Shown piece by piece: positions 419-5,119 of a DNA stretch of 64,000 nt. A program made the position numbers and the translations under genes. This DNA comes from Candidatus Babelota bacterium. Its GTDB lineage: Bacteria > Babelota > Babeliae > Babelales > CAIQNR01. Every line of letters starts with the position of its first letter. Within the stretch, counting starts at the first letter, position 1. The notes below the pieces were generated by a model. That model was not told the origin of the DNA, ran no database searches, and worked only from the letters and a program-made list of their open reading frames with translations. Location: positions 392,722-456,721 of the forward strand of contig CBFHTA010000001.1 of the NCBI GenBank assembly GCA_965658655.1, given 5' to 3'.

Positions 419-1537
419 TTAGAGTGATCGGTACAATGCTAGATGCTCTTCCACCATTGCGCTTGTTGTAAACTCAGAAAGATCTTCTTTGTGCGAACTT
501 AATTTTTCGTATAAATGTTTATCATTAGCGAGTGAAAGCATACCCTTTCCTAAAGATCCTTTATCTTTAGGTTTGTATAGTAAGCCATTTTCTCCATGAT
601 TGATCACATCGCTAATACCGCCTACATTATAGGCAATAACGGGCAACTTTAGAAAGCGTGCTTCTACAATGGCACAAGGGAGCCCCTCCCATAAAGATGA
701 CAATAGAAATGCATGCCATGAACGCATAAAAGAATCTACGTCCTTTTGCCATCCATGTAGCGTAATAACATGTTCTAATTTATGCTGTTTTATCCATTGT
801 TCTATTTGTGGTCTTAGGAATCCATCACCAATAATTTCGAGCCTTGTGCGTGGATTATGTATATGTGTATAAGAAAAAGCATGCAAAAGATCAAAAAGAT
901 TTTTCTGTTTTTTAAAACAAGAAACGGTTCCAAAAACAAAGGATCGAGTTTCTGGAGGTGTCTTTATTGCCGGTACAAATTGAATATTATTAATTGCTGC
1001 TCGAATAATAGAATGTTTATAGATAAAGTTAGGTATCGACATAATGCCTGTTTCAACATCTTTAGTAGAAACGCAAACATAATGTGTAGTGATAAAACTT
1101 GTTAGTACTTCAAGAAGATAACTGATGAAATAAGCCGGCAATGATTGATGTTCATGAAAACCAAACCCATGAACAGTGTGAATACGGTACCTTGCTCCGG
1201 CAAACCACGCTGCCCATCGCCCCAAATAGCCTGCTTTGGTGCTATGAGTATGGACAATTAAATCTTTATTTTCTGCTTTCTGTTTTTTGATGTTGCGAAC
1301 TAAATCTATAAATGCTTTTAATTCATAAAACCCAATTTCTCTTTTAAGAGAGTCTAATAGAATAACATTTGATTTTGATTTGGTTTCGGAGACTAATTGT
1401 CCTTCTGATCCAGATATAAGCCAAGATTGATGTTGTTTTTGTAGTGCATTAAAAAGGGCAAGGCAAACTTTTTGAGCACCTCCTAATTCTAATTTAGTAA
1501 CAATATAAATAACATGGATCCCCTTTTTTTTTCCCAT
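419..1537 (-). CDS. Glycosyltransferase family 4 (GT-B)
   Basis: GGAQK, HTHSTKAG, HTVHGFGF, SSLWEGLPCAIVEA (EX7E) motifs. Confidence 0.9.
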   Translation of the reverse strand: MGKKKGIHVIYIVTKLELGGAQKVCLALFNALQKQHQSWLISGSEGQLVSETKSKSNVILLDSLKREIGFYELKAFIDLVRNIKKQKAENKDLIVHTHSTKAGYLGRWAAWFAGARYRIHTVHGFGFHEHQSLPAYFISYLLEVLTSFITTHYVCVSTKDVETGIMSIPNFIYKHSIIRAAINNIQFVPAIKTPPETRSFVFGTVSCFKKQKNLFDLLHAFSYTHIHNPRTRLEIIGDGFLRPQIEQWIKQHKLEHVITLHGWQKDVDSFMRSWHAFLLSSLWEGLPCAIVEARFLKLPVIAYNVGGISDVINHGENGLLYKPKDKGSLGKGMLSLANDKHLYEKLSSHKEDLSEFTTSAMVEEHLALYRSL

Positions 1538-1548
1538 TACTATCCTTT

Positions 1549-2508
1549 TTATTGAAGAAGGAGTACAAACAAAGCGATTAAGAAAGCATAAATTGAACAG
1601 GTTTCAATTAATACTTGCGCAGTAAGACTGGTACGAGAGAGTTGAGAATAATTTTCGGGATGAAGAGCAAGATACTGACAAGCTTTTGTTGCTGTGTTCC
1701 CAGAACCAATACCAACACCTAAAGTTCCAAGGCCCATTACAATCGCTGCTGCAACATAGGGTAGACCACCTGTTGCAAGAGACATCGCAGATGATTTTGT
1801 TCCTAGTAGAGCAAAAGCCATGACCAGAGAAAAAATAATTGGAGATTCAATGAGTGCTTCACTAATAAGTGTGAAAGAAAGTATTTCTGTGTAAGCAGCA
1901 CGATTAACACCTAAACTTTCACATGCTTGGCGTGCAAAGCGAGCTAGCCCCATAGTTGGGCCTATGCTCCCTAGGCCAATACATAGTCCGGCGCTGATTA
2001 ATCGTACACTTTCGGCTAAAGAAGTAATATTGGGAATCTGTTCTTTAATAAAGAAAGAAATAACAAAAGCAAAAAGAAGCGGTGTTTGCATTAATGATTG
2101 TGTAAGTAACATAATCATTTGAATTTTTTGGGTAAAAAATGGTTGTCGAGCTACAGCTAAGCATGCAGACTGCGCTGGAAGCGATGCCGCAACACCAAGA
2201 ACAGCTCCTGTTATACAAATAGCTAGACCAATGCCTGTAACACCATAATGCATTAATGGTGCATGAGGAGACGTAAGAATAGGTTTAAGTAACATAAAGG
2301 CTATAGTAAGCCCGATGATAGCTGAAGTTTCTATGAGTGCCATGCTAAGCATGAGAGTTCGTGTAATTTCTGCGCGTGCACTTGGCTGAATAGTAAGGGC
2401 TTTCATAGCTGCTAAACTCGCTAAACCTTCTCCAATTCCCACAGCTACGGAATTACATCCAACAGCAAGACCTACAGTAAGATAATGAAATAAAGTGGTA
2501 TCAAACAT
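1549..2508 (-). CDS. atpE: F0 ATP synthase subunit c, four fused hairpin units
   Basis: Four ~80-aa repeats, each with a Gly-rich helix, a loop (IQP/RQP/VNR/LHP) and an ion-site residue at E60, Q141, E221, E302; directly downstream of atpB. Confidence 0.9.
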   Translation of the reverse strand: MFDTTLFHYLTVGLAVGCNSVAVGIGEGLASLAAMKALTIQPSARAEITRTLMLSMALIETSAIIGLTIAFMLLKPILTSPHAPLMHYGVTGIGLAICITGAVLGVAASLPAQSACLAVARQPFFTQKIQMIMLLTQSLMQTPLLFAFVISFFIKEQIPNITSLAESVRLISAGLCIGLGSIGPTMGLARFARQACESLGVNRAAYTEILSFTLISEALIESPIIFSLVMAFALLGTKSSAMSLATGGLPYVAAAIVMGLGTLGVGIGSGNTATKACQYLALHPENYSQLSRTSLTAQVLIETCSIYAFLIALFVLLLQ

Positions 2509-2510
2509 AA

Positions 2511-3251
2511 TTAAGGGCCTTCTTGATGCTCACCCTGAATGCCAAGTGAGAGATAGGTTAACGAAAGCATAGCAAAAACAAACGCTTGTATACTTCCCCC
2601 GAAAAGGGTGAAGAAAAATGCTATCAATATATTAAATCCAAAAAAGTTTATAACGGTGGCAATCCAATGAGAACCAATACTGCTCATATAAATATTATTA
2701 ATAACAGAACCACCAAGTAGGTTTCCAAATAAACGGAATGAGATAGAAATAATAGAAGCAAGTTTACCAACAACGTTTAATGGGAACATAACAAAAAATG
2801 GTTGAAAGAATTCTTTGCTATATTCTCTAAAGCCTTGGGCTTTAATTGCATAGTAATTGGCATAGAGAAACGACAATGTTCCTAGAGCCAAGGTAGTGCT
2901 TAAGTCTGCAGTTGGTTCTTCTAACTCAGGAATGAGACTTATCACATTGCAGATTAGAATGAAAATAAAGAGGGCAAACATAAAGCTGAAGTGGTGAAAG
3001 TTAAAAGATCCGAGTGTTTGCGTGCATAAATCCATAAAACCTTCGGTAGCCGTTATAAGAACATAGCGGGTTCGAGATTGTTTATCTTTAAAAAAGAATC
3101 GCCCTAAGACGATCAATAAAACAATAACAAATAAAACAGCCCATGTGGCTATTATTGTTGACAAGGTAAAGTTGAAAAAAGAGTGTTTGTAACCATAATG
3201 TTTGAATGGATTCCAGAACTCTTTTGGACTTAAGAGATTAAAATCACTCAT
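2511..3251 (-). CDS. atpB: F0 ATP synthase subunit a
   Basis: PTADLSTTLAL, SISFRLFGNL (stator Arg), IQAFVFAMLSLTY. Confidence 0.95.
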   Translation of the reverse strand: MSDFNLLSPKEFWNPFKHYGYKHSFFNFTLSTIIATWAVLFVIVLLIVLGRFFFKDKQSRTRYVLITATEGFMDLCTQTLGSFNFHHFSFMFALFIFILICNVISLIPELEEPTADLSTTLALGTLSFLYANYYAIKAQGFREYSKEFFQPFFVMFPLNVVGKLASIISISFRLFGNLLGGSVINNIYMSSIGSHWIATVINFFGFNILIAFFFTLFGGSIQAFVFAMLSLTYLSLGIQGEHQEGP

Positions 3252-3507
3252 GTTGCACCTTCTTTTTTATGACGGCGACCCAAAAACTCGCTAAAAAAGA
3301 TATCAATACCAGTATAATGTCGAGTGAAGTTCTACGCAATATATAGTTCCATAGAAGTGCTACAGAAACAATACGCAGAAGTGCTGTAAAAAAAGAAGAT
3401 ACAAAATTACCTTGAGAGAATGAAAATTTATTGGTGAACAAAAAACTATAAATAATACCTGTGATAGAACCTAATGCTAACGATCCTAAGATGTGGGTAA
3501 CAGTCAT
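3244..3507 (-). CDS. Small membrane protein, probable ATP synthase protein I
   Basis: 87-aa hydrophobic protein overlapping the atpB start, at the usual atpI position. Confidence 0.6.
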   Translation of the reverse strand: MTVTHILGSLALGSITGIIYSFLFTNKFSFSQGNFVSSFFTALLRIVSVALLWNYILRRTSLDIILVLISFLASFWVAVIKKKVQHE

Positions 3508-3509
3508 AA

Positions 3510-4931
3510 TTATAGTTTCTTAATGCCCTTATAGTTCCAATATTCAGCAAGGAAGTGTTCTGAACCAGCAATTGCAACCAAACCATGACGATCGTTAACG
3601 GTTTTCTTTGCAGCATCAAAAGCTTCTTTAAAGGTACGTACAGCGCGAGCTTTAATCTTAAGCGCTTTCATATCTTGAGTAACTTTTTCTGCGTCCCAAG
3701 ATGTGGTTTTTTGGTCGGCTCGTTCTGGTACACCACAAATAAAGATATTACCAGATGTTTTCTTAAAGAAGTAACGGATAGCACGTAAGAATTCTTGGTA
3801 ATCAAGTTTTTCTTGTGGGCACCCTACAATAAGAGTTAAACCCTTAAGAGAACGGTTATAATGTAACAATCTAATACCAAGTAAAAAGTTATTAAAGGCA
3901 TCAATGTTATTTGCATTATCAAGCAATACTGTTGGCTTTTCTTTATCTAAGATCTGGAAACGACCAGCAAGTGTGCTCGCTGTTTCTTTCCAAAAGTGTT
4001 CAATAGTTCTTTTTGGATTAATTTGTGATTGACGCTTTGCTTCTAGAGTTGGGCGACCTCGTTGTCCTTTAACACGCGCAAGCAAGCTATCTTTAGCCAA
4101 AGAAGGATGCTTTGATGCAAAAGAATTAACAAATACAGAGGCAATTCTTTCTGCCAATGCCGCACAACGCCCGTGTAGTTGTTCAAACGGATACGCAAGA
4201 GCAATAAGTTTTCTGATAGGCATTGCCCATTCAGCACCTACTTCTGCAGCATGCTGACTCATGCTTTTTAAGTTTGCTTTATTTTGATCAGCAGACAATA
4301 AATGAGTACCTTTGGTGACTGCGCCTAAATATTCTTTAATAACATCTTCAGAAGCTTGTCCTTCTGCATTAACATCGGTGCTTGTCAATCGTGTAATCGC
4401 TATAATTTTTGAATTACTAATAACGGTTGGGTGAGATGCCCCACCTTGTTCAGCTTCTAATAATGCTATATCAACCTTGTTTTGCTCAAAATAGTTGAAA
4501 GCAATCTGAGTAAGAAGCTCAGAAGTATTGGCTTTAAGACCGAGAGTTTCGGCAGTGTTAATAACATCGTTAGCCAATTCAGTAAAAATTTTGTTTGAGA
4601 CTGTTTCTTCATCAAGAGAGAAACGTTCGTTATAATTAAGGATGTGAGGCGCAACAAAACTACCAACAGTAAAACCTTCAGCGCGTAAGAGCTTAGTTGC
4701 AAAATGAGCAGTCAAACTTTTCCCGTTTGTTCCACCAATTAAAACAGTTTCCACTTTTTGTGAAGGAGAACCAAATGCTTTATCAAGCTGACGAGCTCTT
4801 TCTACATTTTTTCCGTCACAACCAATGGTCCAGTGTCTATTAAGGAAGTCTGTAACTTCTGCGTAACTACGTTGTTTTCCTAGGTTAACCGCACTTTTAG
4901 GTGAAGTTGATGTTTGTTTTACTGTGCTCAT
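3510..4931 (-). CDS. FolC/Mur-ligase-like protein (divergent folylpolyglutamate synthase homolog)
   Basis: GGTNGKS P-loop, APHILNYNERF, GRFQI..VLLDNANN; other FolC motifs degenerate. Confidence 0.75.
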   Translation of the reverse strand: MSTVKQTSTSPKSAVNLGKQRSYAEVTDFLNRHWTIGCDGKNVERARQLDKAFGSPSQKVETVLIGGTNGKSLTAHFATKLLRAEGFTVGSFVAPHILNYNERFSLDEETVSNKIFTELANDVINTAETLGLKANTSELLTQIAFNYFEQNKVDIALLEAEQGGASHPTVISNSKIIAITRLTSTDVNAEGQASEDVIKEYLGAVTKGTHLLSADQNKANLKSMSQHAAEVGAEWAMPIRKLIALAYPFEQLHGRCAALAERIASVFVNSFASKHPSLAKDSLLARVKGQRGRPTLEAKRQSQINPKRTIEHFWKETASTLAGRFQILDKEKPTVLLDNANNIDAFNNFLLGIRLLHYNRSLKGLTLIVGCPQEKLDYQEFLRAIRYFFKKTSGNIFICGVPERADQKTTSWDAEKVTQDMKALKIKARAVRTFKEAFDAAKKTVNDRHGLVAIAGSEHFLAEYWNYKGIKKL

Positions 4932-5119
4932 CGTATTTCCTCATTTTTAGTAACATCCATTTTTCTGTTTCACTACTATTCTAGCTTATAATCACCTTTT
5001 AAAGCTTTGATTTTAAGCTACAGATGACTGTTAAATAAGTTTACGTTATAATAAAGTAATGTCAATCTGGTAATATTTAGTAGGTAGAAAAATGATATTT
5101 ATTTACAAAAGTTCAAAAA

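Follow-up and report, generated by a model that had tools for sequence, protein, structure and literature searches.

A stretch of 64,000 nucleotides from a Candidatus Babelota bacterium of the phylum Dependentiae (TM6) was analysed (GenBank assembly GCA_965658655.1, contig CBFHTA010000001.1, positions 392,722 to 456,721 of the forward strand; hereafter the window). On its reverse strand, at positions 1549..2508, it encodes a fused F-type ATP synthase c subunit of 319 aa with four hairpins and eight helices in one chain, here called c4. An ordinary single-hairpin c subunit, here called c1, is encoded elsewhere in the same genome. The preferred reading, given a probability of roughly 0.55, is that one or a few copies of c4 stand among single-hairpin c1 subunits in a hybrid rotor like that of Acetobacterium woodii, within an ion pump driven by ATP hydrolysis. 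The four-hairpin subunit itself is a real, ancient and phylum-wide variant of the hybrid-rotor idea, and is undescribed in the literature searched. The label c1 is used here for the Dependentiae protein; the separate, double-hairpin protein of A. woodii is always given as A. woodii c1.

The c4 gene (atpE-c4) appears in the open reading frame (ORF) listing of the window as a single ORF with an ATG start and a stop codon at 1549-1551. All four units lie on the reverse strand. Unit 1 (aa 1-80; 2269..2508) has E27 in helix 1 within GIGEG, the carboxylate E60 within IETSAI, and a loop of the form xQPxA. Unit 2 (aa 81-160; 2029..2268) has a silenced ion site, Q141 (codon at nt 2086-2088, within MQTPLLF), and the polar loop A-R121-Q122-P123-F-F. 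The carboxylate of unit 3 (aa 161-241; 1786..2028) is E221 within IESPIIF, with Pro at +2 and Phe at +5, and that of unit 4 (aa 242-319; 1552..1785) is E302 within IETCSIY (302-307), with Tyr at +5. The ion-site carboxylate of mid-helix 2 is present in units 1, 3 and 4 and replaced in unit 2. An initial annotation of the window had described just this arrangement, with 319 residues, four units, a glutamine in place of the carboxylate in unit 2, and E60, Q141, E221 and E302 spaced 81/80/81, and all of it stands as described. The Pfam family ATP-synt_C (PF00137) matched c4 at E 2e-34 and 118.1 bits (cut-off 24) in the four stretches which that annotation had predicted, with no stops between the units. 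A six-frame search of the whole assembly found the four as separate PF00137 matches of 33-46 bits each, all above the cut-off, in one stop-free frame of 326 aa.

The AlphaFold2 model of c4, computed with a 148-row alignment, consists of eight long helices that form four hairpins, with a mean predicted local distance difference test score (pLDDT) of 97.0 and a predicted template modelling score (pTM) of 0.93. With its 319 aa and four hairpins, c4 departs from the plan of one hairpin in about 70-90 aa that underlies the NCBIfam equivalog models. It falls below the cut-off for 15 of the 17 models listed (for example NF009999, 118.4 vs 124) and passes only NF005363 (75.8 vs 71) and TIGR01260 (47.1 vs 43.95). 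The V-type K models remain far under their cut-offs (47.3/211, 46.1/188, 37.6/101 and 32.3/127). The cut-off of 130.85 is not reached by the N-ATPase subunit c model TIGR03322 on c4 (90.4 bits), nor that of 302.1 by the N-ATPase model TIGR03306 on the window's subunit a (101.8). The protein is an F-type c subunit, and neither a V/A-type proteolipid nor an N-ATPase c.

The phylum was sampled with 201 genomes from 20 families and 120 genera, and 59 genomes, covering all 20 families, formed the set for detailed comparison. A full-length colinear match to c4 is present in 201 of 201 genomes, in open frames of roughly 311-353 aa; the exceptions among the frames are one TGA in G155, a frame shortened by a contig end in G063 and a 249-aa frame in G131. 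The four-hairpin fusion is a hallmark of Dependentiae as a phylum. Of 1.84 billion cluster representatives searched, 151 matched at E <= 1e-30, mostly of 305-335 aa, and the source names of the close homologues are 'Candidatus Dependentiae bacterium' and 'Candidatus Babeliales bacterium'. A search of genome contigs with c4 for related loci gave only two weak, irrelevant ones. Annotation pipelines name the c4-like proteins plainly 'subunit C' or 'hypothetical', and no NCBIfam model is dedicated to them.

That the long frame arose by misassembly of four separate tandem atpE genes, or that it belongs to a pseudogene in decay, is scarcely credible. A 15,216-nt contig from run X1, the probable source sample, runs through 526-5000 with 0 differences. 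In X2, a further sample of the study that X1 belongs to, the contigs matching 1491-1816 and 1858-2483 show 0 differences and lack indels, and they take in each of the three unit junctions (at about nt 2268, 2028 and 1785). The c4 gene is not an assembly artefact. The intact colinear frames in 201 genomes of 20 families and the high-confidence fold point the same way, as does a tree of individual hairpins from 12 Dependentiae genomes that represent both major sides of the phylum. Each of units 1, 2 and 3 has a branch of its own there, with support of 100, 95 and 97 in the Shimodaira-Hasegawa-like approximate likelihood ratio test (SH-aLRT), and unit 4 groups in 11 of the 12. By this branching, all four units had separated from one another before the sampled phylum radiated.

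The numbers of hairpins and ion sites in a c-ring set the ions moved per ATP. The initial annotation had reasoned that, if c4 were the only c gene, the ring would have to hold 8 or 12 hairpins and only 6 or 9 sites, equivalent to 2-3 ions per ATP. The window's own genome (G000; a 929-kb assembly, 95% complete) holds a second c gene, c1, which encodes a single-hairpin PF00137 protein of 82 aa at G000:C1:44811-45056, about 350 kb from c4; the premise fails and the derived ring does not follow. In a mixed ring Q141 would lower the site count by one per copy of c4, a modest change of gearing instead of 2-3 ions per ATP. A strong c1 match is found in 198 of the 201 genomes. In the remaining three (G182, G186 and G198) c4 is the only PF00137 match. 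The alpha subunit is likewise not found in G182 and G186 (86% complete), and in G198 alpha starts 915 nt from the contig start, so that an upstream c1 would fall off the contig; all three are assembly gaps.

The F1Fo genes of G000 are spread over four loci, with no single operon: c-b'-b-delta-alpha (C1:~41-45 kb), beta-epsilon (G000:C1:~217 kb, with an epsilon of 80 aa), gamma (contig 3, C3:~103 kb) and AtpI-like-a-c4 in the window, the first three lying outside it. The c1 gene is the first of its cluster and has its own upstream region and a Shine-Dalgarno (SD)-like site. G000 encodes a, gamma and epsilon once each and a single alpha/beta pair, along with b', b and delta, and this single set of other subunits indicates that both conserved c genes serve one enzyme.

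A rotor made of c4 alone would be either (c4)2, in which 8 hairpins carry 6 sites, or (c4)3, in which 12 carry 9, and would move 2-3 ions per ATP, leaving c1 to an alternative ring (for example in another life stage) or to some other role. Known c-rings contain 8 to 17 hairpins, a range that includes both sizes, and the low ratio of ions to ATP would suit an ATP-driven pump. The gene for c4 adjoins that of the only a subunit in 58 of 59 genomes, and its four-hairpin arc is predicted at very high confidence. Such a rotor is nevertheless considered unlikely. It would have to accommodate a c1 that is kept wherever its locus is assembled, that is more conserved than c4 (mean top-residue frequency 0.74 vs 0.53-0.61 for the c4 units) and that heads the b'-b-delta-alpha cluster; two forms of the enzyme would share one a, one gamma, one epsilon and one alpha/beta pair; and A. 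woodii c1, the only characterised relative, works in a mixed ring according to the sources given below.

In G000 the motif residues of c1 are GQG...ETSAIY. A comparison of 39-40 genomes shows no variation at Q31 or E64, and Y69 is kept in at least 90%. By the rule in section 2.3 of a preprint (10.64898/2026.10.01.756066), a Na+ motif combines Q/E in helix 1 with E-[ST]-[ST]-x-x-Y in helix 2. On this rule c1 carries a complete Na+-type motif; the coupling ion may be Na+ or H+. The polar loop of c1 is G-K-Y-P-E (KYPE) in place of the usual RQPE. The initial annotation had seen the Na+-type signature scattered over the units of c4. Its elements, including E27 and ETCSIY, do occur there, but the full signature (Q...ETSxxY) sits on c1 and is not pieced together from c4. 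The motif is incomplete in every unit of c4: unit 1 has E27 and ETS but lacks the Tyr, in units 2 and 3 the residues at +2 and +5 are Pro and Phe, and unit 4 has ETCSIY, but Ser at its helix-1 position in the window protein. Across the detailed set the helix-1 position of unit 1 is Q in 26 and E in 23 of 59 genomes, Pro at +2 and Phe at +5 are conserved in units 2 and 3 (P in 55 and F in 58 for unit 3), and Tyr at +5 of unit 4 is found in all 59.

The four ion sites read EQED in 27 of these genomes, EQEE in 14, EEEE in 10, DQED in 2 and EMED in 2, and EGQE, EEED, EEEQ and EQGE once each. The site of unit 1 is acidic in 59/59 (E 57, D 2), that of unit 3 is E in 57, Q in 1 and G in 1, and that of unit 4 is acidic in 58 (D 32, E 26, Q 1). 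The site of unit 2 is Q in 44, E in 12 (from 6 families), M in 2 and G in 1, and among 242 near-full-length database proteins it is Q in 211, E in 23, M in 3, L in 3, V in 1 and S in 1. The replacement of Glu by Gln, whose conservation the initial annotation had proposed to trace through orthologs, is not fixed in the architecture. A quick, unrooted maximum-likelihood tree, computed from subunit a and c4 after masking of the four site columns, has a deep split (SH-aLRT 100) between 13 rows (E 12, G 1 at unit 2) and 46 rows (Q 44, M 2), and the window genome lies on the silenced (Q/M) side. The acid/non-acid state of unit 2 requires 2 changes on this tree. Since all other c hairpins have a carboxylate, the pattern would reflect one ancient loss at unit 2. 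On this comparison of sequences the silencing of unit 2 is real and old, but it is clade-specific and not a property of the architecture.

The mean top-residue frequencies of units 1 to 4 are 0.53, 0.61, 0.61 and 0.57. Unit 2 is the most divergent in profile comparison. The idea that it is degenerating was rejected, since it is as conserved as unit 3 and holds P123, the one column of the 148-sequence alignment that never varies. The most conserved element of c4 is the loop of unit 2, A-R-Q-P-F-F (R 56/59, Q 59/59, P 58/59); in the loop of unit 1, Q41 is kept in 58/59 and P42 in 51/59. The RQP loop of F-type c subunits that have been studied in detail (R41-Q42-P43 in Escherichia coli) makes contact with gamma and epsilon. 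As unit 2 keeps the RQP loop and c1 has KYP, c4 may provide a docking patch for gamma and epsilon. Unit 4 is the most c1-like, its hhalign comparison with c1 giving the highest score of all pairs (127, 43% identity). Among the units the hhalign scores are 65 (U1-U3), 61 (U2-U4), 78 (U1-U4), 75 (U2-U3) and 107 (U3-U4). A duplication order from c through c2 to c4, which predicts U1 close to U3 and U2 close to U4, is not shown by these scores.

Directly upstream of c4 lies atpB (2511..3251, reverse strand; 246 aa; PF00119, 124.7 bits), which encodes the F-type a subunit and is the sole PF00119 match in G000. The arginine of its RLFGN motif is kept and aligns to subunit a of Bacillus PS3. Its stop codon is 2 nt before the c4 start. 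In 58 of the 59 genomes atpB is directly upstream of c4 on the same strand, and in the 59th c4 is at a contig start. Between the a stop and the c4 start the median distance is 1.5 nt; it is <=30 nt in 57/58 genomes, and in 18/58 the two genes overlap by 4 nt. This tight spacing fits a coupled, roughly equimolar synthesis of a and c4, and c4 is probably translationally coupled to subunit a within the same transcription unit. A small hydrophobic ORF of 87 aa (3244..3507, reverse strand) overlaps the atpB start by 8 nt and is AtpI/AtpZ-like by position only; it matched no Pfam or NCBIfam family at E <= 0.01, and noise only at E <= 1. A BLAST-detectable counterpart is found between folC and atpB in 32/59 genomes. 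Inspection for promoters, terminators and ribosome-binding sites revealed no feature that separates the expression levels of c4 and c1.

Fused c subunits next to subunit a are also found in a family from Desulfobacterales. One 5-hairpin form, used as a query, matched 2405 proteins at E <= 1e-20, of which 120 were retrieved (P0230, P0286-P0404). The source names, where given, are Desulfobacterales, Desulfobacteraceae, Thermodesulfobacteriota and Deltaproteobacteria, and the proteins are called 'ATP synthase F0 subunit C'. The 120 comprise 21-22 proteins with 4 hairpins, 69 with 5 and 29-30 with 6 (counts by length and by domain differ by one), at lengths of about 324, 405 and 485 aa. Their site patterns are EQQQQ (66), EQQQQQ (26), EQQQ (21) and seven others; a single carboxylate is found in 117/120, and in 113/120 it is in the first hairpin only (EQQQ, EQQQQ or EQQQQQ). 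Among the metagenome loci of the family (L124-L203), the gene stands directly after that of an F-type a subunit in 21/21 of at least 12 kb. A tblastn search with b, b', delta, alpha, beta, gamma and epsilon of G000 gave no match within 7 kb in 21/21 of these loci. The family resembles c4 in the xTPxxF and RQP loops of its internal hairpins and in the Tyr and HPE-like loop of the last one; the carboxylate is almost always confined to the first hairpin, whereas c4 keeps 3-4.

Position-wise profiles of U1 score best on the first, those of U2 and U3 on the middle and those of U4 on the last Desulfobacterales hairpins. In the hairpin tree the first and middle Desulfobacterales hairpins group together (SH-aLRT 87) and not with their positional counterparts in Dependentiae. 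A common origin of the two fusions is favoured by the profile scores but not by the hairpin tree. The search of cluster representatives also returned 5-hairpin forms of 406-434 aa and several other multi-hairpin proteins. P0249 (328 aa) has four hairpins reading E,E,E,Q, P0268 (434 aa) five with Glu in all and P0218 (411 aa) five reading E,Q,Q,Q,Q, all by eye. P0260 (524 aa) has 7 ATP-synt_C stretches and a Gracilibacteria name, and P0205 (1139 aa) has 15 and a Promethearchaeota/Hodarchaeota name. P0195 (968 aa, of unnamed origin) has 13 ATP-synt_C stretches and is rich in Trp where c subunits have Gly, which suggests TGA codons shown as Trp and read otherwise by its organism.

The same data bear on the idea that c4 is mainly a device for assembly and stoichiometry, a covalent arc made together with subunit a and the AtpI-like protein that would nucleate the ring and set its size, with ion sites that are secondary and can be lost. 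The tight spacing of a and c4 and the AtpI-like small ORF upstream agree with this, as do the losses of sites in different lineages at unit 2 (Q, M, G), unit 3 (Q, G) and unit 4 (Q), and the 117 Desulfobacterales proteins with only one carboxylate-bearing hairpin. The carboxylates retained in units 1, 3 and 4 (59/59, 57/59 and, counting any acid, 58/59) imply that most sites of c4 are under selection. Moreover, an assembly role refines a hybrid ring rather than excluding it. As the main function of c4, assembly is rated quite improbable.

From its gene content the organism is an energy parasite, as had been suspected. Four tandem frames of TLC-type nucleotide transporters (466, 477, 444 and 472 aa) are encoded at G000:C1:489882-495556, and neither COX1 nor cytochrome bd was found in the 95%-complete assembly. 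The genome search that the initial annotation had recommended for F1 genes and nucleotide translocases thus yielded a complete F1 set along with the four TLC frames. A membrane-bound pyrophosphatase (H_PPase, 819 bits; G000:C1:318570-320480) is a second possible ion pump. The epsilon subunit (G000:C1:216746-216973; open frame of 82 aa) consists of the N-terminal beta-sandwich only, without the C-terminal helical domain of typical bacterial epsilon. The same N-terminal-only form was found in 60 of the 61 phylum genomes searched, in open frames of 79-123 aa. Given the role generally ascribed to the C-terminal domain of epsilon, such a subunit would fit an enzyme that is unrestrained in hydrolysis. 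Two TM6 genomics papers propose that the ATP synthases of this group probably run in reverse (PMC4776705, PMC6561590).

In the mechanism that we infer for the hybrid rotor, c4 would be made from the transcription unit of subunit a, probably by translational coupling, and would enter the ring in low copy together with many c1 from the c-b'-b-delta-alpha cluster. The product would be a heteromeric ring of the A. woodii kind, with a four-hairpin rather than a two-hairpin fused member. For k copies of c4 the ring would have k silent positions (unit 2, Q141). The RQP loop of c4 would additionally serve as a docking patch for the gamma/epsilon foot of F1, and the enzyme would hydrolyse imported ATP to pump either Na+ or H+. 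The hybrid ring is backed by joint retention of the two genes, c4 in 201/201 and c1 in 198/201 genomes with the other 3 being gaps, by the single set of other subunits, by the tight spacing of a and c4, by the mixed ring of the closest solved relative, A. woodii c1, and by the conservation of unit 2 with its RQP loop. The direction of pumping is backed by the TLC transporters, the negative searches for COX1 and cytochrome bd, the N-terminal-only epsilon and the two TM6 papers. A complex prediction with one c4 and four c1 chains gave a median score of 0.30 against a mark of 0.32, with controls not run, and counts neither way.

Several points weigh against the hybrid rotor. The sharing of one ring by c4 and c1 is an indirect deduction from genome sequences. 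The two c genes are in separate loci here, and the A. woodii c1, c2 and c3 genes are adjacent. Translational coupling is suggested by spacing, and docking on F1 by loop conservation, as the one line of evidence in each case. The Na+-type sites of c1 would be mixed with the internal sites of c4, which lack the Tyr throughout units 1-3 and in units 2 and 3 show Pro and Phe at +2 and +5; such a ring would be chemically heterogeneous and unusual. Finally, as (c4)2 and (c4)3 fall within the range of known ring sizes, a homomeric ring would be physically possible.

The remaining genes of the locus provide context. Five genes are close-packed on the reverse strand (window 419-4931): a FolC/Mur-ligase-like gene that is not an ATPase part (3510..4931; Mur_ligase_C 28.1 bits, just below the cut-off of 28.4), the 87-aa ORF, atpB, c4 and a GT4 glycosyltransferase gene (419..1537; Glycos_transf_1, 104.6 bits) that starts 11 nt past c4. 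A promoter-like site was seen by sequence inspection upstream of the FolC-like gene (5065-5038, reverse strand). The FolC-like gene is a same-strand neighbour at the c4 locus in 42/59 genomes and the GT4 gene in 41/59. The order folC-like, 87-aa ORF, atpB, c4 and GT4 is widely kept in the phylum, with no obvious functional link of the folC-like and GT4 genes to the ATPase.

Considered together, the Dependentiae and Desulfobacterales proteins raise a wider idea, held tentatively and on balance doubtful: that fused multi-hairpin c subunits paired with subunit a are a widespread, unrecognised class of parts for F-type hybrid rotors, and that the Dependentiae rotor is asymmetric. If so, A. woodii c1 (2 hairpins, 1 site) would be the smallest member of the class, and Dependentiae c4 (3-4 sites) and Desulfobacterales c4/c5/c6 (one site) would be others. 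One c4 arc per ring would then form a dedicated docking platform for gamma and epsilon through its invariant RQP loop and would act as an assembly nucleus at 1:1 with subunit a. Many KYP-loop c1 hairpins would do most of the ion carrying, in a structurally asymmetric rotor.

Departures of F-type enzymes from the plan of one hairpin and one site are known essentially from one case, the c1 of A. woodii and Clostridium aceticum. The Dependentiae add a whole phylum of ATP-importing intracellular parasites that have a four-hairpin c beside a normal one. Their clades with zero, one or two of the four sites silenced amount to a natural series, which could address how rings are built from fused arcs, how silent sites affect torque and gearing, and whether the docking of F1 is restricted to one part of the rotor. 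Cultures of some Dependentiae exist in amoebae or protists, which makes ring stoichiometry and coupling ion directly measurable. The initial annotation knew of no characterised four-hairpin F-type c, and no paper describing one was found in full-text literature searches, which did not reach subscription papers (notably Brandt and Muller 2015) or supplements. Within the same reach, no peculiarity of the c subunit in Dependentiae was found, and the relevant passages of the TM6 genomics papers PMC4776705 and PMC6561590 mention 'ATP synthase' only.

By sequence, c4 and c1 alike have A. woodii c1 (PDB 4BEM chain J) as their nearest solved protein, with phmmer E-values of 1.4e-11 and 5.9e-22, respectively. 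A. woodii c1 also ranks first for the c4 model in Foldseek (4BEM_J; template modelling (TM) score normalised to the target 0.74, root-mean-square deviation 2.0 over 158 columns), followed by proteolipids of V-ATPases and by Enterococcus hirae NtpK (2BL2_A, TM 0.78 on the target). About half of the c4 model is the most that any solved chain covers (query-normalised TM <= 0.44). In the 4BEM alignments hairpin 1 of A. woodii c1 reads ETSGIF and hairpin 2 QTTGIY. According to PMC7911925 and the preprint 10.64898/2026.10.01.756066, A. woodii c1 is a duplicated c whose second hairpin lacks the carboxylate, and the ring consists of nine single hairpins and one four-helix subunit.

Like the c1 of A. 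woodii and C. aceticum, c4 is a fused multi-hairpin c of an F-type enzyme, encoded directly after atpB. In both systems the same genome encodes a single-hairpin c with Q...ET(S/T)xxY, Glu is replaced by Gln in one hairpin of the fused protein, and the +5 residue is Phe in an internal hairpin and Tyr in the last (units 3 and 4 of c4). A. woodii c1 has two hairpins with one active site and c4 four with three; the silenced hairpin is the second of two (Q...QT) in the former and the second of four in the latter. The A. woodii c1, c2 and c3 genes stand together, whereas Dependentiae c1 is at a different locus, 350 kb off. A. woodii c1 occurs in a few acetogens, c4 is fixed in a whole phylum of ATP-importing parasites, and the unit 2 site of c4 is unsilenced in 12/59 genomes.

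With the V/A-type proteolipids (E. hirae NtpK, 2BL2; eukaryotic V-ATPase c, c' and c''), c4 shares hairpins duplicated within one chain and loss of carboxylates. It differs from these two-hairpin proteins in its four hairpins, its F-type a subunit (PF00119) and its F1 alpha-beta-gamma-delta-epsilon genes. Natural fusions of more than two hairpins also occur in the A-type c subunits of archaea, that of Methanocaldococcus being a triple hairpin, and to our knowledge such a protein is the only c gene of its operon. For the A-type c of Methanopyrus kandleri, the preprint 10.64898/2026.10.01.756066 gives 13 hairpins. In contrast to these archaeal fusions, c4 belongs to a bacterial F-type enzyme and is accompanied in its genome by a separate single-hairpin c.

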